From IMG/VR virus record IMGVR_UViG_3300025853_000044, positions 31,368 through 95,367 of that record: DNA of 64,000 bases; one strand, given 5' to 3'. The notes under the pieces were generated by a model. That model had not been told where the DNA came from. It was given only the letters and a program-made list of their open reading frames with translations, and did no database searches. Position numbers and translations under genes: made by a program. Positions 14,236 to 63,294 of this stretch are shown here, piece after piece. Origin of the DNA: a virus. Each line of letters begins with the position of its first letter. The stretch's first letter is position 1.

Positions 14236-14571
14236 TCAGCAGTTCCATCGCTTCAAGGATGCTCCCTTTGGTGTGAGTTTACCACCTTTACTGGTCGGGC
14301 CTTTGACACCCGACATGCGAGCGCAAAACGATTTACGACGCTTTGCCTTCTTTGAGCCGGGTTTGAGTTTGCTTGGTTTGGTTGTCACGGGAGGTTTGAG
14401 GTTTGCACCACTCTTACGCTTGGCGGCGGCACGACCTTTAGCGTTCAGTCCACCTTTCTTACTGTGCTTATTTGGGTTATAACCATGAAATGGCTTACTT
14501 TTTTTGGCCTTCATTACAGCAAAGGCTAATTCAGCAGGCGAACAACAATCACAAAAATCGTAATCCATCAC
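14236..14571 (-). CDS. Small, very basic protein (DUF6321-like)
   Basis: GGLNAKGRA...NLKPPV...RRKSFCARMSG...SLKRWNC. Confidence 0.65.
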   Translation of the reverse strand: MMDYDFCDCCSPAELAFAVMKAKKSKPFHGYNPNKHSKKGGLNAKGRAAAKRKSGANLKPPVTTKPSKLKPGSKKAKRRKSFCARMSGVKGPTSKGGKLTPKGASLKRWNC

Positions 14572-17500
14572 GAAGCATCACCACTATGGTCATTTGAATT
14601 GTAGGAGACATCTCCTTTATGTCCTTTGGGATGCAGGGATTGGGAGAAACGAGGCTGGACGGTGTAATCCATGCGCTCTTCCTTGCTCTCGCCCTCTTGA
14701 TGGGTGCGGCGGCGAGCGGCATCTGCACGGTAGTGTTGCAGGGTGTTTTCACTCATCACGACACGAGTAATCTCGTTGTCCAATAACGATGAATCAAAGC
14801 CCGTGGCGGCGGTGCCGATGATTTTCGGGCCTTGACTCATTGGCACAGTGTCACTTGTACTGATGTCCATGTAGTATGCGGGCGCATAAGGTGGGTTGGT
14901 GTCGGGGTTGGTGCTACGAATGTAGGAGCCTGCCGATGCTTGACCGTTGGTTGTCTCGTACACATATAGCCCGTACTTACCACCAGCGGTGGCACCGAAG
15001 TAGTTGCTACCATACTGTGGGCTTGATGAGTGCAAGTTGAGGTTGGAGCGGAACATCTCGGCATGTTGTTTGTCCAGTAAACGAACTGGGCGCAACATGT
15101 AGGAAATGCGCTTGTCGGTGAGGTTGGTACGCTGGTGCCCGTTGGTGTCGGTTTGATATGGGTTGCTGGACTTCCATTGTGAAACATTGTTTGTGAATCC
15201 GTATTTTTCCGCAAGGTAGCCTTCTACTTGTTGTCTTTCTGTTGTACTCATAGCCCGATTATACTGAATGATTTCTGCAATTTTACCTTTTAATTCAAAC
15301 GAACCTACATGGCCGATACCATATGGGTCTTCATCAGCCACATACCAAGCACCAGTGCTACTTCCTACACTAACACCTTGTAAAAATAGTTCAAAGTTAG
15401 CGTTGCTACCTGCGCCATCTCCACCTGCTATGGTTCCAGTAACCAATTCTGCTTGATTAACGACTACAGCATTACTTGGGGAGTTTACAACAGTGTAAGT
15501 AGTGTCAGCACCACCTCTCCACTGCCACTTGTCGCTTGAATCCCACCGAATAAACAACGAATGACCAGCACGGGTTACTGGGCTGTTTGCGAATGTTTCC
15601 AAAACCCCTTGAGCATTTCCATCGTCGTCATCCGACCAAGCAACGACAAAGAGTGTTACATCGGTAGTGTTTAAGCGAGCATCAAATGGTGTACTCATAA
15701 TGTCTGTTCCATCACAATCTACAACTGGCATGTTGTTCACATTGGATGATGACGCAATATAGACTGGTTGTTTGGATGCAGTAGATTGTGTGAACTCAAA
15801 GCCATGCGGCCCGCTGTCTTTCCATGATGTTACAGCCGCCCCGTCTGCCAAATCAAGGCTATCGGCTTTGAGCCACAACGCCATGCCGGATGTGGGAATG
15901 CCGCCCCATTCAGTATCGTCAATAGGTGATACGAAGTTGCGGGCTTCTGCAATGTAGGTACCGCCGAGTGGGTTGAAGTTGGAGGTATGGGAGAGTCGCA
16001 TAGCACCACCCTGCGGCTGGCCGCTGAAGTCAAGGGCGGTGAGGTCGTAATGGCCAATCGTCTGCGAGCCTGCTTGCATACCACCATGCACGATAACACG
16101 CTGGCCTACACCACGGTCGGAGTGTAGGCTGTGAGCCTCGGTGTTGATGGCAATGAGGTTATCATCCACACCCTCTACATTCTCAGTGTCAAGTCCAATG
16201 CGGGGTGCACTGCGGCTTACAGCGTCTTTGTGTGGAGAGTCACCGCTCACGGTTTCTACACGGTCGCTTACCACGGCTTCCGGCTTGAGCAAGCCGTCTT
16301 CTGCGATGTCAAGGCGTGCGCTGATACCACGAGGCACCTCGTCAGCCTGCAACACATCGTTGCGAGCACGGATGTAGCCGTCGTTCATGTTCGGCTCAGC
16401 GGTGTGATGAGACAACACAACACCCGATGCGTGATACGGCTCGTCAAGGGCTGTCAACACATCCTCGTTAAAGGCAGTAGGGTATCGCAAACCACGCCCG
16501 TGCCCGTCGTCGCCAACACGGTGAGCGTTGGTGGGGAAGTACACATCCACAAGTTCAGTAGCGTCGTTAGAGTTTACATTGTTAAGCCGTCCAGCAAAGC
16601 GTGGTATAGTAAAGCCCGTCGTGACACTGATGTTGCCCGAAGCATCTATCAACGCTTTCGTATTCATGATTGGGAAGCCACCGTTGTAGATTCTGTCAAA
16701 CGGTGTTTTGTTGCCGGTGCGGTCATATTCGTACACATCACCAGCATCCCACGCAGGGCGAATACCGAAACCACGAACAGGGTGACGGCGTACTTCTTCA
16801 CCACGGGTGTTACCCCACCAGTCCACCAAATAGTACGCTACAGCCTCATCCAACTTGTAGATGCCCTTTCCTTCTCCATCTCCCCACCAATCTCGTAGCA
16901 CGCCGCTTGCGTTGCGTAGTGTGCGTACAGGACAACCGAAAGCACGAGCCATACGCATTCCATCACTGTAGCGCACCTGCCATTCGGGTTTATCCACACC
17001 GAGCATACCGGAGAAGTTGGTCTGCCGTTCCATAATACCGAGTTGAGTGTTGGGGTATGTGCCATTGGAAAGACCGCTACCACCTGCGTATGTCCATGTT
17101 TCAGTCTCGCCTTGCACAAGTGGGCCGTGTGGATAACCCACGCTGGTGTTTGTCCCAGTTACAGCGGCTTCTCGGAATGCACGCATACCATACAACGACC
17201 ATTGTGGTTTGTTGTAGGGTTGGCGTAGGCCAATACGATAACCGAATGGTCGGGTGCGTGTTTGTACAGGAGTGAATGTGAGCGTGCCATTCGTCACAGA
17301 CCCACCCGTGGTGGACGCACTCAACTCAAAGGTCGTAGCGTTGGTGATGGATGAAACCGTGGCACTTCCCGGTATGCCTGTGCCACTTACTCCCATACCG
17401 ACTACAAGTTTTGCCGTAGAATCCATGGTGATGGTCGGGTCATTGTTGTAGTCGCATGTTGCATCGGTAAACGCATCGTATGTGGATTTGACCACACCGT

Positions 17501-20500
17501 TGGTGACAACATACGAACCGTCATCGTCTTGGTCAGCCCACACCGGGCCGTCAAAGGTGTATTCTCGTGGGAAGTCCCATGAGGTAGAAACATACCCATA
17601 CCCGTCAAGTCGGCTGATGAGTGGGCCACCACGACTACCACACGGCCAGTAGTGGTTGAGATTGGTTTTGGTTGCGGCATCGGAAGCATCGGCCTGCCCA
17701 CCCTGTGGGTCAAAGTTACCAGCAATTATCGGACTACCAAAGGTGGTGTCAAGTACATCGGCTGTTAGCATACTTCCGATAGCGTGTGCCATTATGGTAG
17801 AACCAATTGGTATGGTAGCGACTATTGGTTCAATAACAGGCATAACACCAAGTACATGATTGTCAAATACACTACCACCGTCGTCTTGTACCGTGTAAGC
17901 GATACCATCAATCATTATTTTTGTTCCACCGACAAGTTTTGCAGTTCTGCGAGTTGTGGTGATGAGTTTATTGGGAATATCTACCGATACTACAGTAGAT
18001 GGCACATTAGTTCCAACTGAGGCGTGAGCAATGATTTCGTATGGAGGGGCCGGCGTTTTGCGGTCAAACGCAAACGGGCCGAGGCTGGCGTAGTATGCCG
18101 CATCATGGTAGTGTACAGTCTCAAAGTGTTCGGGCATACTGTTCAATGGTTTTTGGGCAACAGCACGGTCAGTCAACGGGTTGAGCCATGTACGGCTGGA
18201 ATCCGAGTAGAAGGTGTGTGGTCGGCCAAGGTTGGGGTGCCATAGACACAGGAAGGCATCGGCCACATGTAGGCTGTTGGTATCTCGGCTACCCTGTAGC
18301 ATCTGCGGTAAAATGCGTGTCACCATGCTGGTCTTGGAGTCTGTAAAGATGGCACCAGCAGGGCGGAAGTCGTAGGCACGGGTAAGGCGCAATTTTGTGC
18401 CAGCGGTCAGATTGCTGGTGAAAGAAGACTTGGCTGTGATGGTAAACTGCTTTGGTTTGTTCATGTTGCTTGAATCGTACCCGCTACGCTCAGTGTAAGT
18501 GTGTGTGCGTCGTACACCGTTTACATCCGTGTATTCCAACTTGTTGCCGTAATACGGTTTCTGTGGGAAGCCACGAGCATCATCAACAGTGATTTGAGTT
18601 GTAGAATCAACGCTTACTACAGTACACACAGGATTGAGGCTGATGTTTTCAAGCACCTCGTGGTAGATGTCGGGGTAAATGCTTGGATAACCTGCGAGTG
18701 TGATTTGACACGCTATGCTTCCTGTGCTTGCACGAAGGAACTCGTAGTAGTTGTCAAGTCGGTGATGGTTGAGATGGCGGAACCCTGTAGCGTCAGCGTG
18801 GTCGGGGCCGTCTTTATGGACAATACTCCACCATGGTATGTTGGTCGTCATACCCGGTGTAGCGTTATCAAACATTTGTGGTTGATATGGAAGTGAACGC
18901 TTGACAAAGGCGGGGCTTTCGGTTGCCTGTACACCCAATGCGTTGTACAGCATCAACGGTGGGATGTTGGTGAATTGGCTACCGTGGTCGGGGTCATGGT
19001 CAAGAATCAACTCATTGACAAACACCTCACAGCCTCGTACATCGGCCATCGTAGCCTCAGCCAACACAAGACCAACAGCACCCGTGGCACTGTCGGGTTC
19101 TCGTAGGCCAATAACCAGTGCAACCTGCTGGCTGGTCAATTCATTAACCGAACCATCGGGTAGTGCTGTTGCTCCACCATTGGCGTGATAACCCATGAGT
19201 TGTGATTTGTGGATGTTAGGTTGAATGACGATTTGGTATGCTCCCACTTCACTTGGGTCGGGGAAGTGATGACGCAGGGTGTAGGTAGCGGCGGCTTCCA
19301 ACACGATGGTGTGTCCACCAGCGGCATTGATGACACCAGCCTGTCCTTCGGATGCCAGCACACCGTATCCGTCGCTACGAATCTTGGACTCAAACATCAG
19401 CGTGAAAGCCCCACCGTGTATGTCGCTTGGCCCACTGGGTGTGGCCGTGAGCGCACCGAAAGTATGCAGGGTATCGTAACCGTGTAAATTGTTTGTGAGT
19501 GTTGTTGAGATGTCAGTCTTCAAATTGCTCATGGTTTGCTCTTCCATCAACAAGGTTTCGTGCGGTTTAACCGTAGCAGAACGGATTGCTCGGTGTTTGT
19601 TGTACAACCCTTGGTATGCAGGATGAGCGAAATGGCCGGGGAGCATGGCCATTGTAGGGTTGACAAAGTGATGCCCCATTCTTGGTAATGCCATTGGTGT
19701 CATTTTCGGCCTTGAATAAACCGTATGACACAACAAAGCGTTGAGGGTTAATCCTGTGATATAGGTGCTGTGTACAATGTCGGGACTGTTGCCACTCACT
19801 TCCGCATGGTCACGCAAGCGGCGTGATGCAAAGAAGCGAGTGCTACCAGCAGGGATGTAATACGAAGGTACGACCTTGAGCGTTGTGATAGATGACTTGA
19901 CCAATTCGGCAAAGTCGGCATCACCTACACAACCTGTGAAAGTAGAACTGCTGATACCCGTGAACGATGCAACTCCACCTTTATCGGTTGTGGGGTCATA
20001 CAACCGTAGGAATTTGCGGCCATCACGAATAGATTCGTTAAACAGCGAAGCGTTAGGAGCAGTGTTGACAGTGAGAGTGGTGCCGCTAAACGATACAGCC
20101 GTCAATTCAGCGTTGACTACACCACCCGCATGTGTGTAGAAAGTTGGGTGGCGGTGGCTGTGCGTGTTGCCGTTCTTCGTGATGTGGAAGAACAGTGTGC
20201 GGTCGTGCAATTCGTAGGATGTTTCAAGTGGTGCGTTGCCCGTGGCTGTTTCCCATCCTGCGTATGTCGGGTCGGGGAACGAACCTTGGCTGATGTGTTC
20301 CCAGTTGTGGTCGCTGAATGTACCACCAAGGCGTGGCCCCTTTGTATCATCAGTAAACAAATGCTTGATGCTACTGCTTGACATTGGGCGCATCATACCG
20401 CCAGTGCCCATGCTTTCGTTTTGGTAGGCTTGCAGGCGGTCAAATCCAGCACGAATGAGAAGGTTGCCGGGGATGCTATCGGGATGGGGCAGACGCACTT

Positions 20501-23500
20501 TGAGGTTAGGCTCTACACCACTACCTGCGGTTGCAGGCGCAAACCCTTCTGCGCTACGGTCGGACACGGCGTTGAAGGTGCGAATAATCGTACCGAATGG
20601 CGAGCCGCCCTCAATGATGTGGATTTGGCCCGTGTCGTCTTCAACTTGCATCTCTTCAAACTGCAATTCCTCATTGGGGATGGCCAATACATTTCGCAAC
20701 TCATCGGGATGTGCGGCGGCGATTTGTGGGTGTGCCAACTCTTGCGCCTGTATGATGGGGAACATGGCACTGTTGGTTGTTTCAAACGAGAATCGGTTGA
20801 TACCGTACAATTTCTCTCCCATCGTATGCGGTGTGTTACTCAAGACACGAGTGACAAATGGAACAGCACCAAGACCACGAGCATTGACGGCTGGTAACGA
20901 TAGATTACCTCCATCCATACGCTTCCACACAACATGCTCAACGGAGAAGTTCTTGGCGGGTGAGCGTTGATTCATCTTGAAAGCGTTGGTGTCGCCAAGC
21001 CAGTAGTTGGCATCGTCGCCATATCGGTCAAGTTCAGCACTGGTACTCGTTTTGAGGTCTGTAATGAGGTTGCGCTCTACACTGGTAGCGTCTTCCAAAA
21101 AGAAACTACCGGGGCTTTCATCAAGGTCAAAGAATAAATCACCAGTCTTTGCATAGCATGGTTCAGCGTTAAACAGTTCAATATCAGCGGCAAGAGGCGC
21201 ATTGAACAAAAATGGGTCTGCTGGTATATCATCAGCAGGTAGAGACAAATTGGTCACAAGAGCCTCAATGTTTGGCCCACCGTGAGCAGGTGCAACGAAC
21301 CTGTCAACACTGTGGATTCGCTCGTCCCACTGTGCAGTACCAGCAAAGGTGATGGCTGTAGCGGCGGCTACACCACCAGCAGTTTTGTTGACAACAGCCA
21401 ACCAATCACCCATAGCAGTCACACCGTCACGGTCACGCTTTGCTACAAGACCCAATTCACCCTCATACGATATGACAAGGAAGGCACGACCAAAGACACC
21501 TTGTGGGTGATGAAGAGCACGAGGCACTGCATCTGCATCACCGATGTGTACGGGATTAGCGAAGTAGTCCGAGTGTTCCGCATCTGTTTTATCAGTATTA
21601 TATGCAGGATTTGTATTTGTAGAAGCGTAAGTCCATGAGTAGGGTGTAGTGAGCATGGTTTCATCGTTATCTGTTCCACTTATTGGCCCACTGGCTTCGG
21701 GTGAGTTTCGCATTGGTGCGTAGTGTGGTAAATGGCTGTATGTACTCATTACACTTGATGCTGGCCCGTAAGGTGAGAAGCCCAATTTAGCGTGCCATGC
21801 ACCCAAGCCCGCACCGTACAGGTTCGTGGTGAAGGTAAGCGTACCGTTTGTCACAGCCCCACCAGTTGTGCTTGCTGATAATTCAAAGGTCGTAGCATTG
21901 GTGATTGAAACCACAAACGCACCCGCTGGTATGCCTGTTCCGCTCACCAGCATGTTTTTCTTGAGTAAAGCAGTTGAGTCCATTGTAATGGTCGTAGCGT
22001 TGTTGTAATCACAAGTCGCATCGGTAAATGATGAAGTTGTAACTTTCAACGAATTAAGGTATGAGTATCGCTCACCCGACCAGCCCATTGCACCTACGGG
22101 TCGTGTGCGGTCTATGGCATCCACAAGGCCACTAAAGTGAGAACGAGTCATGTGGTCACGAGGTGTGTCGTAAGCGTTGTTGTGGTAATGTACGCCCGAC
22201 TTGCTCCACACATACAATTTAGTTGGAAGGTTTGGTGGCACAGCCGTGAGGTCAAAGTCGGGCACAGTTATACCCGCACTTTCACACCTATTGTGCCAAG
22301 TTGTCATGTCCTCAAACTGTGCTTTACCAGTAATTTTGTTTGGTGCCAACCAAAATCGCACAGTCAGCACACCAGCCTTTTCATAAATTTCACGAGAATG
22401 ATATGGAGCAAATGCAGGACAGGAATTATTTGGCGCAGTGGACGGGTGGCTTCTTCCACCCGTATCGGTACGAATCCAACCACATGCTGGTATTTGCTCT
22501 AAAACATCTCTTGTTGAACCCGCAATTGAACCTTCAATGTATGATTGTGAACTGCCACCAGTGGTAGCATTTTGATAAGAATTTGATGGGTCACCATAGT
22601 CCATTTCAATCCAACCGTAGCGGTCTTGGCGTTGAGCGTTGCTCATGCTTGGCATAAAGGTACCACCCATGGCTTTGAGTGCGCCCTTGCCGGGATTTTC
22701 GTTAATGGCTTGGCCGATGATAGTCGCTAACTCTTCACCGTTTTGACAGCGTGTGCCATCTACGACAATTATTTCACGGTCAAAGTCTGTCGCTGTTTCA
22801 CCCAATGAACCAGCAAGCACGCTTTTGGCAATCACACCCGACACACGGTAAGCCGTAGGTTGTACAGCGTTTGCAAACAGTTTACTGATTTGCAAGTCGT
22901 CCTTTTCCATGGGTGGGTTGAATGCCATTTGGTTGTCCATCCATGAACCACCGGGGTGGTAGCCACCGTCCATGTGGAAAGTCATGTCAGCACTCATAGC
23001 AATGCCGTAGTATGCCATGGCGCAATGTTGGTAGGGATGTGCTTTCTTGTAATCAGCCTCGTTGTTTGCTACCACTCTACCACTTACGGGATTCATGAAA
23101 TGCTCACCGTAATGGTAGCCGTGTTCGGGTCGTTGTTTCAACCCATAACCACTCGCTCCTGTGTCGCCAATGTTTGGTGTCCCTTGTGCTGGCGACCAAT
23201 TCAATGTTGTTTGCCAGTGGAAACGATTCCGTCTTGATTGGTAATTAGCATCGGGTGGGCCGTAATCGTTGTCGTTGTTGGTAATCTCGTTGGGTAGGTT
23301 CTTGCTGTGAGGTACCTTACTCCATGAGTTTCCTGTTGTGACAACATATCCGGGGTGAGGCTCTACAACACCGAGGTTGCTTGCTGTTTCATTGAATGGG
23401 AAGGCTTGACCGGGGCCGTAGATGAGGTAAGTCGTGAAATACGGCGTGGCGGTCTTGTGGTCGGTATAGCGTGCCGTTTGATGAGGCATACGCATGATGA

Positions 23501-32567: not shown

Positions 32568-32576
32568 CCATTCACC

Positions 32577-40646: not shown

Positions 40647-41327
40647 TCAAGACTTCATAGCACAATCGGTACACATACCCATTTCATGAATGAATAACAA
40701 ATCGTCTTCATCTTCCCGATAAATACCTTTGCGGCATCTTGGACAATGTGTATAGTATTCTTGCCCCTGCCAATCATACGGGTCATTTTTCAACACACTC
40801 CAAGCATCACGAATAGCGACATCACGAGAAGTCATGATACGACGGAGGTGTTCAGCCTCAGCATCGGGGTTGAACTCTTCTTCGGGCGATTTACCTGCTT
40901 GCCATCGTTGCACTTTTGGGTCGCCATCATCCACTTTAGGGTCATCCGGTATATCATCACGGAGTTTACCTTGCTCATCAAAAATGTCGGGTATTTCGGG
41001 CTTTTCCGGGGCAAACTCTTGGTCAACAGCGGCTTGCTCGCCCTCAACATCGGGTTCACTCAACGACTCTTCCAAGGTTTGACCCTCAAAGGGCACACGC
41101 TCGCCCATGAACTTGAGTCCATGCTCGTCGGGATTGGCTACAGCCTCACGCATGAGAGCGTCACGAGCCTGTGTGAATTGTTCACCACCGGCCTCTCCGC
41201 CAGCACCACGAAGAGCGGCTGATGCTGTTTTGTTTGCCCACTGTTGCAGGCGCATCTCTTGTCCGTCTTCAGTCAACACCTTTTGTCGGTGCGGTCGCAT
41301 TGCTTTGATAAGTACCTTCATGTTCAC
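40647..41327 (-). CDS. Acidic protein with AWSVLK tag followed by a Zn finger
   Basis: IRDAWSVLKNDP...CPRC...CTDC. Confidence 0.65.
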   Translation of the reverse strand: MNMKVLIKAMRPHRQKVLTEDGQEMRLQQWANKTASAALRGAGGEAGGEQFTQARDALMREAVANPDEHGLKFMGERVPFEGQTLEESLSEPDVEGEQAAVDQEFAPEKPEIPDIFDEQGKLRDDIPDDPKVDDGDPKVQRWQAGKSPEEEFNPDAEAEHLRRIMTSRDVAIRDAWSVLKNDPYDWQGQEYYTHCPRCRKGIYREDEDDLLFIHEMGMCTDCAMKS

Positions 41328-43237: not shown

Positions 43238-44338
43238 TCACTTGAGGTCACGGATTGAGCCGTGTCCACCGAAGAAAGTCGTCCATAGTTCTCCCATGGT
43301 GCGGTACATTCCTTCTTGTCCGAGGCGGTTGATAGCGAATGGGTCGCCAGTTTCAATACCGCTCTCAAAGTATTGGGTTGGAATTGCAGTGCTGAAGTAC
43401 AAGTAATCCGTGTCAAGGAAGTACATACGGCTCAAAGTGTCCGTTTGAATGTCCTTGGATGGGATGATTGGGACACCGTTGTAGGTGGCCACAATGAAAC
43501 CTGCTTCAATACCGGGAACACCTTTCACACCGTTGTAGGTAGGGGTGACACGCTTCTCTTCCATAAACCGCTGTTGGCTTTGGAGGAGTTGTTGTAGGCG
43601 CATCAAGGTGTCGTATCCAGTAAGAATAACCTTGGGGTTTCCACCACGAGTCCAAATCTTTTGGAACAGGTCATCCAACTGGTCAAGGGACAAGTTGCGG
43701 TCAGTACCACTGTTTTCATTGTGCTCAGCGAGCGACCACGAGTTTGCACTGCGGTCAATGGAGTACATGTCTTCAGTTGAACCTGCGGAAGCACCAACGG
43801 TCACACGGTCAAGGGATTCAAAGTCGTTCCCTGCAACGGTGGCTTTGTCGGTCGTAAGCATCTTGTTCACATGCTCAGCGTGGTGCTTACCCATTTCTTC
43901 CTTGAGAATTGCACGAATGTCGCCCAATCCATCGTCCTTGTCGGACAGGAACATTGCGGTTTCGCTCATGTCAAAGGTGTGAACCACAGTCTTTGGCTTG
44001 GCGGCAATGTGCTGGAAGGTTGGTTTGGTGGTGTCGGGGAGCGTAGCGTTTTCTGCAACACCGCCGCCAACCGTGAAGGAAGGACGCTCGGTGATGACTC
44101 GCCAACCACTGCGTTCCCAAGGTCGCTTGGGAAGGATGGAGAAGGCGTTGAACTCTTGGTTCAACTGGCTCCAAACCTTGCGTCCATAGATGGCTTGGTA
44201 AGTACCAGCCGTGGTGGACAGCATTGGAGCGTCAGCCTTGAGCAACTCGCTACCGGAGTAGGAGTATCCCATTGCGTTGCCTGCGCCGTAGTAGTATCGT
44301 TCCATGTCAGTAATGTTTCGGATGTAGTCTCTTGCCAT
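43238..44338 (-). CDS. Major capsid protein (HK97 fold)
   Basis: Follows protease/scaffold; GGGVAENATLP, DFESLDRV, YNGVPIIP...MYFLDTDYL; GAGGTGA SD. Confidence 0.85.
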   Translation of the reverse strand: MARDYIRNITDMERYYYGAGNAMGYSYSGSELLKADAPMLSTTAGTYQAIYGRKVWSQLNQEFNAFSILPKRPWERSGWRVITERPSFTVGGGVAENATLPDTTKPTFQHIAAKPKTVVHTFDMSETAMFLSDKDDGLGDIRAILKEEMGKHHAEHVNKMLTTDKATVAGNDFESLDRVTVGASAGSTEDMYSIDRSANSWSLAEHNENSGTDRNLSLDQLDDLFQKIWTRGGNPKVILTGYDTLMRLQQLLQSQQRFMEEKRVTPTYNGVKGVPGIEAGFIVATYNGVPIIPSKDIQTDTLSRMYFLDTDYLYFSTAIPTQYFESGIETGDPFAINRLGQEGMYRTMGELWTTFFGGHGSIRDLK

Positions 44339-44365: not shown

Positions 44366-45745
44366 TCATTCCCCTCGCAGGGTGCGATGTGCAAGGGCGT
44401 GAACTTCGTCCCACCCCATGTTCGCCATGTCTTGCGTTGAGGGAATGTCAATGGATGCAACCGACTTTTGAATGGTCGTGCCTGCTCCTGCACCGATGTT
44501 GTCAATGCGCTCGGAAAGAGCCTCAATGGACTTCACGATTTCCGTAAGTGGTGCTCGTGCGTCAAAGGCGGCTTTATCAGCCTCGGATTTAGCAACTTCC
44601 ATCTCGTTGTTGAAGCGAGCGGCAAAGTTGCCTTCAAGGTTGTTTCGGAAGTCTTGTTCCAAAGCGGCGGCTTTGTAAACTTCGTAAGCGGCTTCAAGGT
44701 CTGCATCACTCACATTTTCGGAGTTGAGGTAGCCCTTGGACAATGAGGCTGGCCCCATTGCTCCGGCAGGAGTTTTACCACCGGAAGCGGTGATAGCGTT
44801 GATTGCACCAGTGGAGGGAGAACCGTTCTCCTGTCCTCGGCCACGGACTTGACCACCGAAGTAGTCAGCACCGTCAACAGCGTCGGGGTTGTCAAAGCCA
44901 CCAAGTTGGGCTTTCTCAAGTTGGTCAAAGTGGAGGCGAGCACCATCAGTGTCAACGCCAGCCGACTTGAGGGTGTTTTCCATCCAAGAAAGGTATTCGG
45001 AGGAAATAACATCGGAGTATTCTCCTTTGTCCATGTACATCTTGTCATCGTCTTTCTTTTCGTCTTTCATTTCGTCACCTTCTTCTTTTTCGGGCTTTTT
45101 TTCTTCATCACTACCCTTACCCTTCATGTGTTCACGGAGTTGAGGAGGTAGTTCTCCCTTTTCCATGGCATCCAGTCGGCTTTCAAGTCGTGACATAATT
45201 TCTGTCAAATCACTGTTTTCGTTTGTCATAGTGTTGTCCTCCTTCAAAATGCGGAACTGTGCTTCGGGGTTGATACCCTTTTCACAAATCGTCACCTCAT
45301 GCAACTCCATTTTTGAAATCTCTTGGTAGTCGCCTTTTTCCATGTCGGACTTTCGCACTCGCTTGAATGCTTGCCCTCCAATAGAAAATCCACGAAGGTT
45401 GCCCTTGCGGATTTCAGCGGCTACTTCACGAGCCTTCTCTATATCGTTGCGGAGTTTAACAACAACGAACAGCCCTGTGTCATCCGTTTCGGATTTCCAC
45501 ATGCGTCCGTTGGAATCAATGTACGAGTCAATGACTTCGCCAACTTGAATGTTGGAGTGAGCCAACTGTACATTGCGGTACTTTTCACCCTTCATGAAGC
45601 CATCAAAGGCATCCTTTAGGGCGGAGCGAGTAATGAGGTCGCCTTGCTTATCTACAAGTTCAACTGATGCGTAGCCAGCAACAACCAAATCGTTACCACT
45701 CTTGAGGAGAGTGATACCGTCAGTAGGTCGTTGAATGCTCAGCAT
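44366..45745 (-). CDS. Prohead maturation protease fused to scaffold
   Basis: VAGYASVELVDKQGD, LAHSN, LRGFSIGG, LHEVTIC...NPEA (HK97 gp4-type His/Ser protease), followed by an acidic coiled-coil scaffold. Confidence 0.9.
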   Translation of the reverse strand: MLSIQRPTDGITLLKSGNDLVVAGYASVELVDKQGDLITRSALKDAFDGFMKGEKYRNVQLAHSNIQVGEVIDSYIDSNGRMWKSETDDTGLFVVVKLRNDIEKAREVAAEIRKGNLRGFSIGGQAFKRVRKSDMEKGDYQEISKMELHEVTICEKGINPEAQFRILKEDNTMTNENSDLTEIMSRLESRLDAMEKGELPPQLREHMKGKGSDEEKKPEKEEGDEMKDEKKDDDKMYMDKGEYSDVISSEYLSWMENTLKSAGVDTDGARLHFDQLEKAQLGGFDNPDAVDGADYFGGQVRGRGQENGSPSTGAINAITASGGKTPAGAMGPASLSKGYLNSENVSDADLEAAYEVYKAAALEQDFRNNLEGNFAARFNNEMEVAKSEADKAAFDARAPLTEIVKSIEALSERIDNIGAGAGTTIQKSVASIDIPSTQDMANMGWDEVHALAHRTLRGE

Positions 45746-45776: not shown

Positions 45777-45784
45777 ATGGTTCG

Positions 45785-51571: not shown

Positions 51572-51583
51572 GCTATCACCGCC

Positions 51584-51730: not shown

Positions 51731-52245
51731 CAACGCCCACCCGCCGTGTCTTCTCGCTCAGCCCCTCGTCCCTCATGAGGATTCATACGAGAGCCGAGGC
51801 GTTGAGTGTCAATGGCTTCTTTGGGCTTCTTTTTCTTGGGAGCATCCTCAGTCTCAATGGTGCGTCCGTTAGTGGTAAAGTAACCACTTTTGGTTTGTCC
51901 ACCCGATTCAGCGTGGAAAGAAGGATTGACATCGGTGATTTTCTCAGCCTTGAAGCCCGGTTCGGCTTTGGCCATTTTACCATGAGACTTGTTGCATTGT
52001 GCCTTTTGCTTTTCCGAGCATTCCGAATACTTCTTACCGAAGTTCTTCATACAGTATTTATCTTTGGTAGCCATGTCAGCCTTAGCCATTTTGCCACCGC
52101 AACCCATTTTCATACATTGGCCCATTTTGTTGAGTTTACCACCTTTACACTTTGGACAATCTTCACCTTTTAGCAATTCGTCAATTCGTTGTTCAAGTTC
52201 AATGGCCTTTGTCAAATATCCGTTTTCTACTGGTCGTGGTTTCAT
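51730..52245 (-). CDS. Lys/Cys-rich protein with LLKG/MAKA motifs (start corrected to ATG 52245)
   Basis: ATGA overlap with the upstream gene; GGAGG SD; CPKC and two KMAKA. Confidence 0.65.
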   Translation of the reverse strand: MKPRPVENGYLTKAIELEQRIDELLKGEDCPKCKGGKLNKMGQCMKMGCGGKMAKADMATKDKYCMKNFGKKYSECSEKQKAQCNKSHGKMAKAEPGFKAEKITDVNPSFHAESGGQTKSGYFTTNGRTIETEDAPKKKKPKEAIDTQRLGSRMNPHEGRGAEREDTAGGR

Positions 52246-52583
52246 TGTACACCCTCCTTTGCACCTAAAGCCAATTCGTGAATGTCTTCCCACGACATGG
52301 CATGAATGTCCTCATTACTCATTGTGCCTATTTCGGGTGAACTCTTGAGAAGAGCACCACCTTCAAGAGCCATATCTCCCCGGAAAGGGTCAACTTGTAA
52401 GTCATTTGTGAAAGGAGTAGAGACATTGACAAGTCCCATTTTACGAAGAAGTTGTTGTGGGTTGTTGATGAGTCTTTTGAGAGCATCATTTTCAGCCTTA
52501 AGAATTGAAAGATTGGAATCCATAGACTCCATCTTATTGATGAGAACACCAATCAATTGTTCAGCATCGGATGATTCACTCAT
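52242..52583 (-). CDS. Mini scaffold-like protein
   Basis: N-terminal coiled coil; C-terminal SNEDIHAMSWEDIHELA resembles the scaffold C-terminus STQDMANMGWDEVHALA. Confidence 0.6.
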   Translation of the reverse strand: MSESSDAEQLIGVLINKMESMDSNLSILKAENDALKRLINNPQQLLRKMGLVNVSTPFTNDLQVDPFRGDMALEGGALLKSSPEIGTMSNEDIHAMSWEDIHELALGAKEGVQ

Positions 52584-52592
52584 TTAATCACC

Positions 52593-52943
52593 TCAAAGAC
52601 GACGACCGTAGGAACCTGCGCTTCGTTTGTACTGTGGGCTGTGGCGGGAGGAAGACATAAAGCCGAGTCGCTGTCCTTCAATGGCGGGCTTAGATGCTTC
52701 TTGTGGTTGCATTTTCAACACAGGGACACCGCCAGCAAAAATATCCCGTGGGCCTTGTGGGGTCACCACATCGGATTTAGCAATCTCTTGGTGCAAATCA
52801 TCAGCCAAAAAATCGCTGAGTTTTTGTACTTCACTAAGGTGTTGCTTGGCCATTTGACCATCTCCACTTTCAAGAGCAGAAATAAATGATTTCTGTGCTT
52901 GTTCCATTTTTCGGGCCATCGGGTGCATTTTCAATAAGTCCAT
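52593..52943 (-). CDS. Hypothetical head-module protein (start corrected to ATG 52943)
   Basis: MDLLKMHP...EIAKSD; the GGGATTAACATG start context also occurs at 36095. Confidence 0.6.
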   Translation of the reverse strand: MDLLKMHPMARKMEQAQKSFISALESGDGQMAKQHLSEVQKLSDFLADDLHQEIAKSDVVTPQGPRDIFAGGVPVLKMQPQEASKPAIEGQRLGFMSSSRHSPQYKRSAGSYGRRL

Positions 52944-52989
52944 GTTAATCCCTGCTATGTTCGCCTCATGCCTTTCGTCTTTAAGAGCA

Positions 52990-56084: not shown

Positions 56085-56088
56085 TCAT

Positions 56089-56487
56089 TTAATCCTTCTT
56101 CTTTTTGACACCGACTTTTTTCGGTTTGGCTGTGACCGCAATCACCATTACCATACCCTTCTTGCCTTTCATGTCTTTCTTTTTGTCTTTCATTGCTTTC
56201 ACCACCGTTGGTTTGCCGCCAACGCCTTGCTTTTTTGCACGCTTGCGTTTGGTAGCGGCTTGTTTTTGACCTTCACTCATAGAGCCACTGGTCTTAGGAG
56301 TTTTACTTGATACTTTGACGGAGGGACGGCACTTTGGGTAGCCTTTGCTTCCCTTCTTCGCTTTAGAACGGCCACATGGAGGGTGTTTTCCGTCTTTGTT
56401 CTTACGGGACACATCCACCCATTTCTCCTTGAACCAACGGTTCAAGTTTTTCACGATGAGAACATCATTCACTCTTTCCTCACCCAC
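56089..56487 (-). CDS. Small basic protein (DUF5872-like)
   Basis: LNRWFKEKWVDV...PCGRSKA...YPKCRP. Confidence 0.65.
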   Translation of the reverse strand: MGEERVNDVLIVKNLNRWFKEKWVDVSRKNKDGKHPPCGRSKAKKGSKGYPKCRPSVKVSSKTPKTSGSMSEGQKQAATKRKRAKKQGVGGKPTVVKAMKDKKKDMKGKKGMVMVIAVTAKPKKVGVKKKKD

Positions 56488-56687
56488 GCATCACAAATAT
56501 GGTCAGCCATACAGTTGAAATCGTACCACTTACAAAAACCAGTCTTAGGGTCGTTTGTAGCAGAACTGTCCCATGCCTTACATGTGCCACAGTTTTTCTT
56601 TGCCTTCATCTCCTTTTCCGTTGCCTCACGGTAGTTGGGAGCATCACGCTTTGCTTTGAGAAAAGCCATAACATAATCAAAGTCCAT
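56469..56687 (-). CDS. Small 4-Cys protein with HiPIP-like spacing
   Basis: PNYR...NCGTC...GFCKWY...HICDAW. Confidence 0.6.
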   Translation of the reverse strand: MDFDYVMAFLKAKRDAPNYREATEKEMKAKKNCGTCKAWDSSATNDPKTGFCKWYDFNCMADHICDAWVRKE

Positions 56688-56904
56688 CGTTTTTCACCGC
56701 CTCAAATGGATTTACAGGTTCAACCGGAGATTGTTCGGGCACCATGGTGTAGCATCCTGCACACATCATATCACCGCCACTTCTCTTACGGTACAACCCT
56801 CTCCCGCAATTGGGACAAGGTTGTTCGGGCTTTACACGAATCCAAGGGTCAGGATTTTCCGAATAAAACTTCAAAATATCCCAACTTTCTTCAAAGGGTT
56901 TCAC
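56677..56904 (-). CDS. Small Zn-ribbon protein with an N-terminal SWDILK tag
   Basis: MKPFEESWDILKF...CPNCG...CAGC. Confidence 0.65.
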   Translation of the reverse strand: MKPFEESWDILKFYSENPDPWIRVKPEQPCPNCGRGLYRKRSGGDMMCAGCYTMVPEQSPVEPVNPFEAVKNDGL

Positions 56905-57092
56905 TTCTTCTTACCTCCCTTTTTCTTGCGGAATTTACCTCGGCAGTATTGAACAGCCCAACCGTTAGCATAAGCAGACGGGTACACCTTGAACTTCCGC
57001 TTAGCGGCGGCTTTACCTTCGGGACACAGTTTCTTTTCAAGAGCGTCCCAAGCAATCCCCATTCCAAAGCAATGTCCACATTCACAAGTCAT
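56901..57092 (-). CDS. Small basic protein with AWDALEK tag and PSAYA motif
   Basis: CECGHC.GMGIAWDALEK...KFKVYPSAYANGW. Confidence 0.65.
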   Translation of the reverse strand: MTCECGHCFGMGIAWDALEKKLCPEGKAAAKRKFKVYPSAYANGWAVQYCRGKFRKKKGGKKK

Positions 57093-57121
57093 TCAAAACC
57101 CCCAGTCATCAAAAGGAAACA

Positions 57122-58612
57122 TCATGGAATCATCCACCCATCAGCAGGATTGTGTTCTTTTGAGCGGTGTGGTTTACCACGAATCCACTCATCAAAGCCG
57201 GGTAACACATCGTCAAGCAGGACAACCGAGCCTTTGAACTCCTTGGTAGCCCAGTTTGCCAGTGCAAGTGACATAGCCAAGTCATCGTGAGTACCCACGC
57301 TTTCCAATTTACCATTTTTCTGCATACCGAAACGGTTGAGTTCAGTTTCCAATTTGTGAGTAAACTCACGGCTTCGTTTGTCACCGTATGGAGTTTGAAT
57401 GCGGCCTTGCTCAAAAGCCATCAAAAGGGACATGAACAGGCTTTCCTTGCGTGTGCGTGTTGTCATGAAAGTCTTGATTGGAATGTCTTGGCGCATTTCA
57501 AGGAGTTCGGCTTGGAACATACGCTGGAAGTTGTTGCCTTCCAACTCAATGAGGTCGGGTTGGAAACGGTTGTTAAGCATCATGATTTGATTTTTCTGCG
57601 CCAGTCCCGACATACCACGCTCGTGAACGATGCCAACGATTTGTTTGACATCCTCACCCGGAAGCATACGCATGACGGTCATAGCGGTGAAGTCAGCGTT
57701 TTTATCCGATGCAATGGCTGTGTCCCACCCAATGAAATGTTGACCGAAAACTCCCATTGGTTCTCCTTCAGCATCGTACTCGGTATCAGCACGGTCAAGC
57801 AACACGAGGTCTTTGTTGCGTGCCTTTTCCAAGATGTCGTTAGGAAACATACTGGCAACATCGTGGATAGGCTCACACAGGTACTCACGAGAAAACTGAA
57901 TGGCTGGCATGGTGAGTCGCCGCTCGTTAAGTGAGTCTAAATCCCATCGCTCCGGCCACAGGGCTTCGCCTTCTTTGTTGATAGCGGGGTATGTTTCCAC
58001 TTGGAATGTTTCAGTTTGTTCCAACTGAGAGTACAAGTCGTTGTACGAAAACGGCGTACCCACCATCATAAGGCGACCCGTGTGGTGGAGAACAGGGAGC
58101 AGGACACCGTAGAACCAGTCTGCGGCACGCTGTAGTTCGGTACCCGTCGTACCCCACAGAATATCGTCGCACAACACAACATCCGGGTGGAAACCACGAG
58201 TACCACCGCCGACCGACTTGGCCATGATACGGCTACCATTGCTGAACTCAAAGTAGGTCTTGCGCCATGGTCGGCCTTCGGGGATGAGGTAGCGAATGGA
58301 GGGCGTGTTCTCAATGTTTTGACGGATGAAACGCATGTGTTCAAGCGTCTGTTCCAACGAGTGCGAGAAAATCATGATGTGCTTACCCGGCTGGAAAGCG
58401 GCAATCCACAGGGCGTAGGACATGAAGAACACGGACTTGCCGTGGTCACGAGATGCTTTCACGCAGTAGTATCGGTTGTCAGCCAGTCCTTTGTCCCACG
58501 ACTTGTGATGGCCCGAATAATCAAAGCCCAAAATCTCCTTGAAGAAGTATTCAAACGACTTTGCAGACATCTTTCTGTCCATGTCGTGAATAAACCCCTC
58601 CATGTCGCTCAT
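57122..58612 (-). CDS. terL: Terminase large subunit
   Basis: Walker A ASRDHGKS, Walker B VVLCDD, MVGTP, nuclease motifs IGWDTA and HDDLAMS. Confidence 0.93.
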   Translation of the reverse strand: MSDMEGFIHDMDRKMSAKSFEYFFKEILGFDYSGHHKSWDKGLADNRYYCVKASRDHGKSVFFMSYALWIAAFQPGKHIMIFSHSLEQTLEHMRFIRQNIENTPSIRYLIPEGRPWRKTYFEFSNGSRIMAKSVGGGTRGFHPDVVLCDDILWGTTGTELQRAADWFYGVLLPVLHHTGRLMMVGTPFSYNDLYSQLEQTETFQVETYPAINKEGEALWPERWDLDSLNERRLTMPAIQFSREYLCEPIHDVASMFPNDILEKARNKDLVLLDRADTEYDAEGEPMGVFGQHFIGWDTAIASDKNADFTAMTVMRMLPGEDVKQIVGIVHERGMSGLAQKNQIMMLNNRFQPDLIELEGNNFQRMFQAELLEMRQDIPIKTFMTTRTRKESLFMSLLMAFEQGRIQTPYGDKRSREFTHKLETELNRFGMQKNGKLESVGTHDDLAMSLALANWATKEFKGSVVLLDDVLPGFDEWIRGKPHRSKEHNPADGWMIP

Positions 58613-58616
58613 GGTA

Positions 58617-59540: not shown

Positions 59541-61516
59541 CGTCGTCCACCTTTTACAATTTGCATGACATCATCCATGGCTTTGTCCATGGACTTGTAA
59601 TACTCGCTGAGAAGAGATTGCTGTGGGTCAGCCATGAGTCGCTGTGCCGCCGCTTCCATAGGAGAAAGCGGTGCATCGCTCATCGGCATGGGTCTGCGAC
59701 GGCCCGATTGTTCAAGCAGTTGTCGGAACTGCATGGGGTCAAGTTGCCCAATTTGCGGTCGCAATTGTTGATATTGCTGTCTCGCAGTATGCGGGAAAGA
59801 AGAAGGTGCCGCCCGAACCGGAGTAGGAACCGGAGAAGTAGTACCCGTTACAGGAGAAACGGGCTGAACAGGTGAAGAAATGACCTGCGGTTCGGGCGAC
59901 TGTGTAAGGGAGGGGTCAAACGCCTCCGTTGGTGCAAAATCATGGATTTCGTGAAAGTACGCATCCATGTGAGGGTCAAGAGGAGGCATGGAGTATTCTC
60001 CTGTCTCGGTATTGAGTTCGGGGTAGCCGCCAATGGACATACCGGGACGAGCGGTGGTAGGGATGTCACCAATACCTCGCTTAACCTCGTGGCCTTGTGC
60101 GCTGGCTTGATGGTCAGCCAATGCTTCCAAAACATTTCGGAAACGGTCAACTTGACCCATAAGACCCTCACTGTGATACATACCCATGGCTTGAAGTTCA
60201 TCAGCCGAGATACCGTGTTCACCAAATCGGCTACGACCTTCTTCACTACCCTCACCCGATGCACGGGCAAGAGCGAACATACGCTTAGCGGATTCGTGCA
60301 TTCCCTTGCCGCCTTTTGCACCCGCTGAGAGGTACTTGGCCTGCTCACCTGCTGAGAGCATGTCTTCGGATGCACCATACTTTTCCATCATGTGGTCGTA
60401 CAACTTTTTGAAATTACCTTGCCCACTACGACCAAACAGAAACATCATAGCAGGTACATGAGCCATGTCTTCTATCAGTTTATTTCGCAATTCGGGAGTT
60501 TGAAGGATTTCGTGAAGTGGTCGGCTTATCATGTTAGGGGCACCAAACGAACCAGTATTGACCGTGACATCTACATTGGGAATGTGTTCTATACCTTGTT
60601 GTAAAGCACTTTGAATCATTTTTGATGCCGCTTGATATAACCCATCTTTGTGTTCCCAAGAATGCTTTTTTCCTGTTTTTTGCATTTTTTCGTTAAGAGC
60701 AGGGTAAAAGAAAGCGTCGGGAAGGTGGTGCAAAACTTCCCATGTATGTACACCTTCTGTTTCACCAAAAAATCCTTCGGGGCCACGCCCCATCATGCTC
60801 TCATCAATGTCAGCACCGTGTTGCTTTTGATTTGAAACGAGGAAGTTTTTAGGTGTAAGAAAGTGAGGTTGCATCCAAGGATAGTCAAGAAACTTAAGTC
60901 CTTGTCGTATTTCTTGTGTTGGAATACCCATATCCTCTAATTGGTGAGTTATGTTACGGTGAAATGGAATGTAGCCACCCTCAACGAATTTACCAACAGG
61001 GGTGGACATGTGATTCTTATTGGTGAGCATCGTGATTTTTGTACCACCCTTTGTTCGTGCAGGCATGGTATTTTTTTCTCTTGTTGCATCCCCTCCGGGC
61101 ATATCCGAAGCCCTAATTTTACGCCATTCGGGAGAGTCAAAACCCGCTAAAGCGTGTGCATCACCGTGAGAATGTGTGTCATTGAACTCGTTGATAGCGT
61201 TATTGATGACTTCGGAGACTGGAATGTTGAATCCTCTTGCACGAAGGAAATCACCAAGTCGGTGTGCTACAGCGTCAATAGGATGATGAAAATCACCGTA
61301 ATCTGTTTGATATGTTTTTTGACCGTGTTCTCCGATAGCCCACTGGCCGGGAAGAAGGTTGCCCACACCATCGTGAGCATGTGCAGGAAGGTCATCCTCT
61401 CCTTCGGGGCGGAAAGCCTGTGGTGGTGGGTTGCGAAAAATTTGCGCTCCCGCTGGCCCGTGCCCCACAAGGCTCCATGCCTTCTTGAGAGGACGACCCA
61501 CACGAATCATCATCAC
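59537..61516 (-). CDS. Hypothetical 659-aa protein
   Basis: Coupled ORF; N-terminal LKKAW, Pro-rich linker, C-terminal QSLLSEYY. Confidence 0.65.
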   Translation of the reverse strand: MMMIRVGRPLKKAWSLVGHGPAGAQIFRNPPPQAFRPEGEDDLPAHAHDGVGNLLPGQWAIGEHGQKTYQTDYGDFHHPIDAVAHRLGDFLRARGFNIPVSEVINNAINEFNDTHSHGDAHALAGFDSPEWRKIRASDMPGGDATREKNTMPARTKGGTKITMLTNKNHMSTPVGKFVEGGYIPFHRNITHQLEDMGIPTQEIRQGLKFLDYPWMQPHFLTPKNFLVSNQKQHGADIDESMMGRGPEGFFGETEGVHTWEVLHHLPDAFFYPALNEKMQKTGKKHSWEHKDGLYQAASKMIQSALQQGIEHIPNVDVTVNTGSFGAPNMISRPLHEILQTPELRNKLIEDMAHVPAMMFLFGRSGQGNFKKLYDHMMEKYGASEDMLSAGEQAKYLSAGAKGGKGMHESAKRMFALARASGEGSEEGRSRFGEHGISADELQAMGMYHSEGLMGQVDRFRNVLEALADHQASAQGHEVKRGIGDIPTTARPGMSIGGYPELNTETGEYSMPPLDPHMDAYFHEIHDFAPTEAFDPSLTQSPEPQVISSPVQPVSPVTGTTSPVPTPVRAAPSSFPHTARQQYQQLRPQIGQLDPMQFRQLLEQSGRRRPMPMSDAPLSPMEAAAQRLMADPQQSLLSEYYKSMDKAMDDVMQIVKGGRR

Positions 61517-63294
61517 ATGTGCCCCCTTCGGCTGTTGATGATACCAACAGGGTCAAGCCCGAAGGTCTTAGCATCTGTCTCAAGGTTCTCAGTTGGGCCT
61601 TGTGGGTCTTCGTCATCAGTCGGTTTGACACCAGCAGGATGACCGGGTAAATCTGCGGCATCTGTCGCTGTCAAGTTTTTCTTTATTTTCGCTTCACGCT
61701 CTTTGGCTTGAATAAGCCGTCGCATGAGATTAAGCAACTCAATACGATGAAGACTGTTGCGAGCCTTAAGTATTTCACTTCGGTATCGCTCTTCACTCAT
61801 CATAATGCTGGAAGAAGGAGAAGGCATAGCAGGCACGCTGGATTGTGCCTGTGGCATCATAGGAGGAGAAGGAGGCATAGGAGCACGCATACGAGGCATA
61901 CGAGGCATACGAGGACGACGCATACGACGAAGTGCCGGACGAGCCATTTGTCCACTTTGTCCAGCCATCAATCCACCGAGTCGTCCAGCACCCGTAGGGC
62001 CAGCGTAGTTGGAGCGGGCACCATACCTTGCGTGCGGTGAGAACGGTGTGCGAACATTGCCCAAGATTTTACGGGCCTCGGATTGTCCTTTGTACTGCGT
62101 GTACTTCTGCGGGTCTTTGGATAGCGGTTGCTTGGTTTGAATACCACGGTGGCTCATCTCAACCGATAGGTGTGGCTTCATCAGCCCCGTCTTTTTGCCG
62201 CTTTTGATACCACGCATCTGTGCTTTGAAGCGGCGCATCGTTGCACCAGCCCCACCGCTCATACCACCCGGTGGTGTCTTGAATTGTCCAGTAGATGGAC
62301 GAAACTGTTGGCGTGCCTCACGCCGTCGTCGCCCTGCAATTGAGCGTGGAGTTTCACGCTTAAGCAGGCTACTCCAAGCATCCTCCATCGGCTCGCTGGC
62401 ATTCTTTGTTCTAAAATCATCATCGGGTTCACCCATTTGGGGGCCAATGAGTTGTCCGAGATAATTCAAATTAGTGTACAAACCTGCTATATTTGCGGCT
62501 ACTTGAGCATGTGAAGGTGCATCACTGAGCATCCTCGTCATATCCGCATTTTGATGTTGGTCAAGGAATTGTTGTGGTACAGTATCCCCCTTACCTTGCA
62601 TCATTGCATCCAAAACCAACAAAGAATTACGATGCTCCATTACCATGTCCATTGATGCCTGTGGATGAAGGTTTTCTTCGTGCATACCGCTTAGCGTTTC
62701 TGCATCTCCATGATGGTGGTTTTTGTAACCCATTGCATCCATCATTCCGCTGTTGACCAAGTTCTGTATCATTGGCGTTTCCATACCCATAATTTGGTCA
62801 TACCACTCGTGATTGGGTGATTTGAATACCTCGTTTAAATTGAATGAAAACGGCTCTTCATCCTGCTTTAACAAACTACTCCAAGCATCTTCCATCGGCT
62901 CGCTCATGGCGATTGGGAGGCCGGGACTCATGGCTGAGCCTGTTCCACTCTTTGCCCCAGTAGCAAGGTCAAGAAGTGTACCCCGACTTCCAGCAGGGCC
63001 ACCAGCCAAACCAATTTCACGCTCAGCATCACGCTTGTTGCCATCATCCAACGGGGATGGAGACTCTTCTCCGCTTAATCCTTGCGTGGCACGGATTTTG
63101 ATGTGCTTAATTTTTGCACGCTTGGCTTTCTTCTCCTCAGCCTTGCGCTTCTTTTCCTCACGCTTTTGCTCGTTGTACTCCGGGTCGGACGGGCTGTACT
63201 TGGTTTCATCCTCGTTGGCCGAGGAGTACATTTTGTCCGACTCGCTACGAGGCGAGTACATGCGAGTATCGGAGCCACGACCCATCATTGGCAT
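61513..63294 (-). CDS. Modular low-complexity protein with duplicated SEPMEDAWSSLLK
   Basis: Two identical 13-aa motifs; Arg/Lys-rich and (RMP)n segments. Confidence 0.7.
   Translation of the reverse strand: MPMMGRGSDTRMYSPRSESDKMYSSANEDETKYSPSDPEYNEQKREEKKRKAEEKKAKRAKIKHIKIRATQGLSGEESPSPLDDGNKRDAEREIGLAGGPAGSRGTLLDLATGAKSGTGSAMSPGLPIAMSEPMEDAWSSLLKQDEEPFSFNLNEVFKSPNHEWYDQIMGMETPMIQNLVNSGMMDAMGYKNHHHGDAETLSGMHEENLHPQASMDMVMEHRNSLLVLDAMMQGKGDTVPQQFLDQHQNADMTRMLSDAPSHAQVAANIAGLYTNLNYLGQLIGPQMGEPDDDFRTKNASEPMEDAWSSLLKRETPRSIAGRRRREARQQFRPSTGQFKTPPGGMSGGAGATMRRFKAQMRGIKSGKKTGLMKPHLSVEMSHRGIQTKQPLSKDPQKYTQYKGQSEARKILGNVRTPFSPHARYGARSNYAGPTGAGRLGGLMAGQSGQMARPALRRMRRPRMPRMPRMRAPMPPSPPMMPQAQSSVPAMPSPSSSIMMSEERYRSEILKARNSLHRIELLNLMRRLIQAKEREAKIKKNLTATDAADLPGHPAGVKPTDDEDPQGPTENLETDAKTFGLDPVGIINSRRGHM
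61887..61930. repeat. 9-bp tandem repeat encoding (RMP)n
   Basis: GCATACGAG repeated about 3-4 times. Confidence 0.75.
62359..62904. repeat. 39-bp imperfect direct repeats (62359-62397 and 62866-62904) flanking an in-frame cassette
   Basis: CTACTCCAAGCATC(C/T)TCCATCGGCTCGCT core in both copies. Confidence 0.85.

Follow-up and report, generated by a model that had tools for sequence, protein, structure and literature searches.

Why do unrelated late proteins of one uncultured virus carry the same short peptide? The question is raised by IMG/VR record IMGVR_UViG_3300025853_000044, a 95,367-bp viral record of which we analyzed a 64-kb stretch (positions 31,368 to 95,367; hereafter the window, numbered from its first letter). 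Replication genes, including a gene for a B-family polymerase and one for a group II chaperonin, occupy its plus strand (448-11289), and the late genes its minus strand (11290-63971), a gene set that matches that of magroviruses, viruses of Marine Group II archaea (PMC5434244). About 10 unrelated late proteins bear a tag of 10-12 residues (about 11) with the consensus [P/A]-[M/F]-[D/E]-x-[A/S]-W-x-x-[L/I/M/V]-(L/E)-K. The tag is a conserved, position-tolerant, and portable peptide, with its Lys at a module boundary. The reading we favor, with a probability of about 0.5, is that it is an amphipathic docking helix that would mark proteins for the procapsid and be cut after its Lys by the S78 prohead protease, the cargo leaving with the DNA. 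An original prediction, made from the letters of this stretch, had proposed just such a cargo-loading label; portability, conservation at the protein level, location on the structural strand, module boundaries, and an encoded S78 protease all speak for it, and packaging and clipping are what we infer from them.

How is the tag recognized, and where does it occur? We derived the consensus from the homologues of each family; the residue at W+3 is aliphatic in every case. An anchor that left Lys out and consisted of just the first half, P-[M/F]-x-x-[A/S/C]-[W/F], gave 107 distinct contexts; in 81 of them K stood at W+4 or W+5, and the remainder are mostly W-less chance matches. The terminal basic residue is therefore K, R being rare at W+4 and W+5. 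A profile built from 175 instances was compared with 20 shuffles of the window's proteins: four sites in the window score 9.7-14.7 bits and two more 3-4.5 bits, against a best shuffle score of 4.1. The tags and tag remnants of the window are as follows.

62866..62904, minus strand: tag copy 1, SEPMEDAWSSLLK, amino acids (aa) 131-143 of a 593-aa polyprotein-like open reading frame (ORF; 61513-63294), 14.7 bits.
62359..62397, minus strand: tag copy 2, SEPMEDAWSSLLK, aa 300-312 of the same ORF, 13.3 bits.
57033..57062, minus strand: MGIAWDALEK, aa 11-20 of a 63-aa protein (56901-57092), with a CxCxxC cluster before it and the N-terminal half of DUF5872 after it, 4.5 bits.
56869..56898, minus strand: N-terminal tag PFEESWDILK, aa 3-12 of a 75-aa Zn-ribbon protein (56677-56904), 14.2 bits.
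56655..56678, minus strand: degenerate N-terminal tag DYVMAFLK, aa 4-11 of a 72-aa Cys-rich protein (56469-56687), below noise here.
56449..56472, minus strand: degenerate remnant VNDVLIVK, aa 6-13 of a 132-aa protein (56089-56487) holding the C-terminal half of DUF5872.
40788..40820, minus strand: VAIRDAWSVLK, aa 170-180 of a 226-aa protein (40647-41327), with a Zn-ribbon payload after it, 9.7 bits.
14509..14535, minus strand: AELAFAVMK, aa 13-21 of a 111-aa DUF6321 protein (14236-14571), 3.1 bits.

The six coordinate ranges and the ORF (56469-56687) in which the motif had originally been reported all translate on the minus strand as described. The claim that unrelated proteins carry one short motif ahead of distinct payloads is borne out, the motif being longer than the "AW-x-x-LK" first proposed. 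Homologues read AW at its two weak instances, AFAVMK and VMAFLK: the 111-aa DUF6321 protein has relatives with AWAVMK or AWAITK, and the 72-aa protein has relatives with AWSIIK, AWAFLK, or AWLLLK. The description of that 72-aa protein as "HiPIP-like" did not hold up, there being neither a Pfam match nor a PDB sequence match to it. A homologue of the 75-aa Zn-ribbon protein carries MKPFDTAWQILK as its tag, and the 593-aa ORF, with two tags here, has one to three in its homologues; copy 1 is kept in them and the residues after its K differ. A seventh match to the strict search pattern, GDAWDFIKK in a tape-measure-like protein (33752-35005), is probably an unrelated W-repeat. In both basic DUF proteins (14236-14571 and 56901-57092), a Cys cluster (CDCC and CECGHC, respectively) precedes the tag and is kept in homologues.

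Does the tag exceed chance, and does it keep to the late genes? We examined five genomes, namely the window's own and four near-complete relatives with polymerases 51-66% identical. Across these whole genomes, an extended search pattern for the tag matched 23 times, against 0.09 matches expected in shuffles, and a core pattern 46 times, against ~8 expected; chance is thus ruled out as its origin. The strand with the structural genes (108 k aa) holds 49 profile matches of at least 5 bits, and the other strand (59 k aa) just one, which lies outside the window and ends in R. The binomial tail of this split is near 1e-8, a figure to be read with the facts that hits are not independent and that the profile was partly trained on these same genomes, although the selection of instances was blind to strand. 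These late-versus-replication and shuffle comparisons, which the original prediction had proposed as its own test and which we ran with the profile and the search patterns, both show the tag enriched. Its statement that the plus-strand replication genes hold no tag is true of the window and becomes significant with five genomes, not with the window alone. The sole tag-like N terminus on the replication strand lies outside the window (18532-19182 of the window's own genome, plus strand; locus L189); it reads MSPFEQAFDYLRQ, with R instead of K, and scores 5.5 bits.

Is it the peptide or the DNA that is conserved? In 40 tag instances, all degenerate codon positions vary: for Lys, AAA occurs 22 times and AAG 18, and for Pro and Ala each of the four possible codons is found. 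ORF 61513-63294 holds two 39-nt copies that differ from each other at five sites, all synonymous, and that have unrelated flanks. Because of this synonymous variation, the tag must be conserved as protein and not as DNA, and a DNA repeat is ruled out as its main cause. The tag has also been kept across genomes whose terminases are 77-80% and polymerases 51-66% identical to those of the window, which argues for purifying selection on the peptide. In large arrays of tagged genes in relatives, residues that are identical are encoded by the same codon at a rate above that expected from codon usage in L222, L197, and L237 (0.57-0.64 vs. 0.41); there is no such excess in L171 (0.37 vs. 0.39) or L223 (0.47 vs. 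0.44). Recombination at the tag may have helped it to spread; it offers no explanation for its conservation.

What lies behind the tag? Tags are found at the N terminus, internally (in polyprotein-like ORFs with two to three tags each), or at the C terminus, and the payloads that they adjoin are unrelated. In the five genomes, 55 modules fall into 37 BLAST clusters; among all fetched loci, 321 distinct N-terminally tagged ORFs yield 157 payload clusters, 111 of them singletons. A paralogous family with a conserved N terminus is ruled out by this diversity. The payloads of the window comprise basic DUF5872 and DUF6321 domains, Zn ribbons, and the Cys-rich 72-aa protein; a literature search on DUF5872 and DUF6321 returned nothing useful.

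The Lys marks the edge of the payload with some precision. The tag hardly varies among 51 homologues of the 226-aa protein, and the sequence beyond its Lys is hypervariable, consisting of different Zn ribbons, other sequence, a second tag with another module, or a stop 1-3 residues on (an ending also seen in locus L199). The Zn ribbon of the window's 226-aa protein stands alone behind an N-terminal tag in locus L218. DUF5872 is split over two genes, the 63-aa protein covering profile positions 4-42 and the 132-aa protein positions 55-114, and the Pfam and PHROG profiles of phage relatives start at residues 20 and 14 of these proteins, at most one residue from the end of the tag. Because PHROG 27331 starts at residue 20 of the 63-aa protein, the phage relatives are without the tag. 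The junction K/NLNRWF of the 132-aa protein (here and below, the slash follows the Lys) is seen again in one related genome (G004), where a polyprotein with three tags has it after a full one, SEPMDLAFDAIK. In the 111-aa protein, DUF6321 (Pfam E 2e-16) begins at residue 36, ~14 residues past the tag. The commonest residue after the tag Lys is A (30%).

Several further observations concern these modules. Between the two DUF5872 halves (56089-57092, minus strand) lie two other small tagged genes, each half having its own tag or remnant. In other phages, large proteins of 336-928 aa end in DUF6321 (phrog_10346, 727, and 3477), and in magrovirus relatives, an N-terminal extension of ~300 aa and the tag precede it. 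In 15% of tagged ORFs, the residue directly after the tag Lys is Met, ~4-6 times the expectation, and K/MP is the commonest pair (loci L222, L197, L223, L237, and L248). The tag looks as if placed directly before an existing start codon, and untagged isoforms from an internal ATG are conceivable.

How widely is the tag distributed? Back-translated A-F-D-x-A-W-x-x-L-K gave 145 matches in 119 IMG/VR stretches, 96 of the 145 with a start codon exactly two codons upstream, and nearly all N-terminal cases are on magrovirus-like contigs. On contigs L222, L197, L223, and L237, arrays of 8-13 consecutive genes all start with MTAFDxAWxLLK; the arrays sit on the late strand, upstream of terminase genes. 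The window's genome has no such array, its tags being dispersed through the structural module, with one more on a 435-aa ORF just outside the window. A stricter N-terminal pattern had 0 matches in 185,579 prokaryote species (one genome each), a Pfam search of array payloads gave no significant match for 19 proteins, and a shared tag, motif, or targeting peptide is discussed nowhere in the magrovirus literature that we searched.

One recurrent array payload, a family whose junction reads K/MPYHGT..., can be placed by its predicted structure. The model has a mean pLDDT (predicted local distance difference test score) of 79 and a domain from residue 15; the tag forms a separate helix (residues 3-11), predicted with low confidence (mean pLDDT 48 for residues 1-10). 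In Foldseek, the top match is Tpt1/KptA (E about 1e-3), followed by the catalytic domains of diphtheria and pertussis toxins, DarT, and Rhs ADP-ribosyltransferase (ART) toxins. The model thus points to an ART-like fold, with no particular activity implied.

Which proteins could load and cut tagged cargo? Three minus-strand genes of the window bear on this.

44366..45745, minus strand: S78 prohead protease (Pfam PF04586, PF14550) with a fused C-terminal part that is scaffold-like; candidate for both the cutting enzyme and the receptor.
43238..44338, minus strand: major capsid protein of HK97/SU10 type (Pfam PF17236), with SELLK/A in its N-arm at aa 30-35.
52242..52583, minus strand: 113-aa coiled-coil protein with the C-terminal motif of the scaffold.

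The S78 protease-scaffold was found in every tag-bearing genome tested. Its protease domain, aa 1-168, ends exactly with [F/Y]-x-[I/L]-L-K, and I-[Q/V]-K-S stands ahead of the scaffold tail; both sites are kept down to 40% identity, their flanks are not, and we regard Φ-L-K and I-Q-K-S as candidate self-cleavage sites. HK97, the model S78 system, cuts after Lys, at K103/S104 (PMC10275583). In the five genomes, the first 70 residues of the major capsid protein are better conserved than the remainder. The 113-aa protein and the protease-scaffold have in common the C-terminal motif M-[S/G]-W-[D/E]-[D/E]-[I/V]-H-x-[L/M]-A, which turns into [A/G]-W-R-A-[L/A/V]-E-x-L in the 40%-identical group and is probably the capsid-binding tail of the scaffold.

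How might the tag work? The best reading of these data is a capsid-targeting and cleavage tag that would be analogous to the capsid-targeting sequence (CTS) of phage T4 and served by an HK97-type (S78) protease. F/M, A-W, and L-L would form the hydrophobic face of an amphipathic helix, which, while the particle assembles, would bind the scaffold or the inside of the HK97-fold capsid. The S78 protease would then cleave after the Lys, freeing N-terminally tagged cargo and splitting polyproteins such as ORF 61513-63294. The HK97 precedent, the conserved candidate sites of the protease-scaffold, SELLK/A in the well-conserved N-arm of the capsid protein, and the frequent Ala after the tag Lys speak for such a cut. 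Cargo would exit with the DNA: here, the basic DUF5872 and DUF6321 domains and the Zn ribbons; in relatives, ART-fold enzymes. We argue that docking, and not cleavage, would be the primary role, because some tags end 1-3 residues from the C terminus, and because 11 residues are conserved and removal of a 12-residue N-terminal peptide would otherwise be pointless.

Several points weigh against this reading. The scaffold tail, the "ELLK" of the major capsid protein, and the protease-boundary sites score about -3 bits with the tag profile, the same as shuffles, so neither a common receptor nor a common cleavage rule is demonstrated. The tag resembles the scaffold C-terminal helix by eye only ([A/G/S]-W-x-x-[L/V]; closer, LDAWRALE, in the 40%-identical group), and the idea that it mimics this helix or the cleavage sites of capsid protein and protease, which lacks profile support, is kept as a hypothesis only. 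A short Φ-Φ-K-[S/A/G/N] site is about equally frequent in early and late proteins. In the ART-fold model, the first strand begins only 2-3 residues past the Lys, which would leave a protease scant room. In HVTV-1, the closest cultured relative (protease 31% identical), a scan of the late half (52,400-102,319) found no tag, and its virion proteome therefore cannot be borrowed. Finally, packaging and cleavage would both have to be deduced from the genes of an uncultured virus.

Other landmarks of the window are these.

57122-58612, minus strand: large terminase.
52990-54771, minus strand: portal.
9543-11060, plus strand, among the replication genes: thermosome (group II chaperonin).
14568-32567, minus strand: 5999-aa ORF that fills 18 kb of the tail module, with homologues in four of four related genomes.
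Minus strand, within the late genes: 1928-aa ORF.

For a 438-aa ORF (54768-56084, minus strand), flanked by the portal gene on one side and the small tagged genes on the other, the only match is a faint one to LAGLIDADG (E 0.05). Outside the window, ~3 kb near the contig start (1483-4600 of the window's own genome, G000) hold no convincing ORF on either strand; this stretch separates the early genes from the tagged 435-aa gene. The terminase or capsid protein is 76-99% identical in hundreds of IMG/VR contigs. Magroviruses are among the most abundant archaeal viruses of the surface ocean.

Could the tag be a docking helix for another partner: the viral group II chaperonin, the portal or tail, a host factor, or other tags, by mutual bundling into an inner body? 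We consider this unlikely, although it fares best among the alternatives. The tag is spaced like a short linear interaction motif, and it works wherever in a protein it stands. Magroviruses are also unusual in encoding a thermosome, which we saw in three of three near-complete tag-bearing genomes tested, and T4 propeptides have a chaperonin-directing role (PMC10052503). In T4, it is the N terminus of gp23 that directs proteins to GroEL. However, no tag system for group II chaperonins is known, and the strictly late-strand location, the terminase and portal neighborhood, and the invariant Lys fit virion assembly better. One tag-bearing genome, 88% complete, yielded no thermosome, which is not conclusive; overall, the presence of a thermosome is uninformative for choosing between hypotheses.

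Alternatively, the tag could be a processing site only, the extended recognition sequence of the prohead protease or of another protease, with no targeting role. An invariant Lys at exact module boundaries, the polyprotein-like layout with two to three tags per ORF, and the precedent for Lys before the cut among S78 proteases would all be expected of such a site. Yet 11 conserved residues of an amphipathic helix far exceed what cleavage needs, a cut would be futile where proteins stop 1-3 residues past the Lys (the 226-aa family and L199), and losing a 12-residue N-terminal peptide serves no evident purpose unless it had acted earlier; we therefore give this explanation still less credence. 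We hold it very improbable that the tag is mainly a joint for recombination at the DNA level, or a leftover of repeated gene duplications and cassette swapping: the codon excess in L222, L197, and L237, the surplus of Met after the Lys, as if the tag had been set before an existing start codon, and gene fission and fusion at tags would fit it, but L171 and L223 lack the excess, the peptide is unchanged across genomes that vary synonymously at every degenerate position, and the window's two copies differ at synonymous sites alone.

How does the proposed capsid-targeting tag compare with known systems? Targeting of T4 internal proteins, the precedent invoked by the original prediction, is real, as is the comparable signal of P1 DarB; a passage of PMC9024508, citing Mullaney & Black 1996, places the T4 CTS on internal proteins IPI-III and Alt. 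Like the tag, the CTS is a portable N-terminal peptide of ~10 residues on otherwise unrelated small, often basic proteins and on an ADP-ribosyltransferase, and the tag has one trait of this functional class, being a short peptide common to unrelated proteins of the head or late module. T4 Alt is a packaged and processed ART, and the T4 gp21 protease cuts after Glu (L/I-x-E). The CTS ends at the cleavage position of the prohead protease; the tag ends in Lys, where by analogy a cut may fall. The two differ in that there is no sequence similarity between them, that T4 uses gp21 and a separate scaffold core instead of the HK97-type S78 enzyme found here, and that the tag is also internal or C-terminal, occurs on ~10% of genes, and forms arrays of up to 13. 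The function of the CTS is proven, whereas that of the tag is proposed from its sequence. We found no homology to the CTS or to a gp21-type protease, the protease here matching Pfam S78/S78_2 (HK97 type).

The N-terminal signal of P1 DarB resembles the tag as we read it in directing an injected antidefense protein into a head of the HK97 lineage; unlike the tag, it spans ~30 residues, has no motif common to many proteins, and needs stepwise Dar assembly (PMC9024508). The prohead proteases of SPN3US and phiKZ cut many diverse packaged head proteins at a fixed motif, but the propeptides removed are mostly 111-254 residues long, with no single common short tag and a different motif, A/S/G-x-E (PMC10052503). 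Phage polyvalent and ejection proteins carry effector domains, including ARTs and Zn ribbons, as found behind the tag. Encapsulin cargo-loading peptides are short, portable, and position-tolerant, and dock diverse cargo inside an HK97-fold shell; they are usually C-terminal (with a GSL-type consensus, for example), uncleaved, and belong to cellular compartments rather than virions. The tags depart from that pattern, being mostly N-terminal or internal and on viral contigs, with 0 matches in the 185,579 cellular genomes. The T4 CTS would thus be the closest functional analogue, followed by P1 DarB, giant-phage head propeptides, and encapsulin peptides; by sequence, the tag system is a member of none of these, and it would work with a different protease family.

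What would the tag mean for these viruses and their hosts? At roughly even odds, one 11-residue address peptide loads a large, fast-changing repertoire of proteins for coinjection, released after Lys by an HK97-type protease. If true, no capsid-targeting system would have been defined in an archaeal virus before this one, and the principle of targeted packaging known from T4 and P1 would reach archaeal viruses and HK97-type proteases. The tag is also compact enough for testing with recombinant procapsids and is a potential handle for protein encapsidation. To our knowledge, no member of the Poseidoniales (Marine Group II archaea) has been brought into culture, and virus-host conflict among them is almost unstudied. 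The tag, if our reading is true, would serve as a sequence key by which the effectors injected by an uncultured virus group could be listed straight from metagenomes, with >150 payload families here. If it is a loading signal, each tagged ORF in thousands of marine contigs would be a candidate virion-delivered effector of Poseidoniales viruses.

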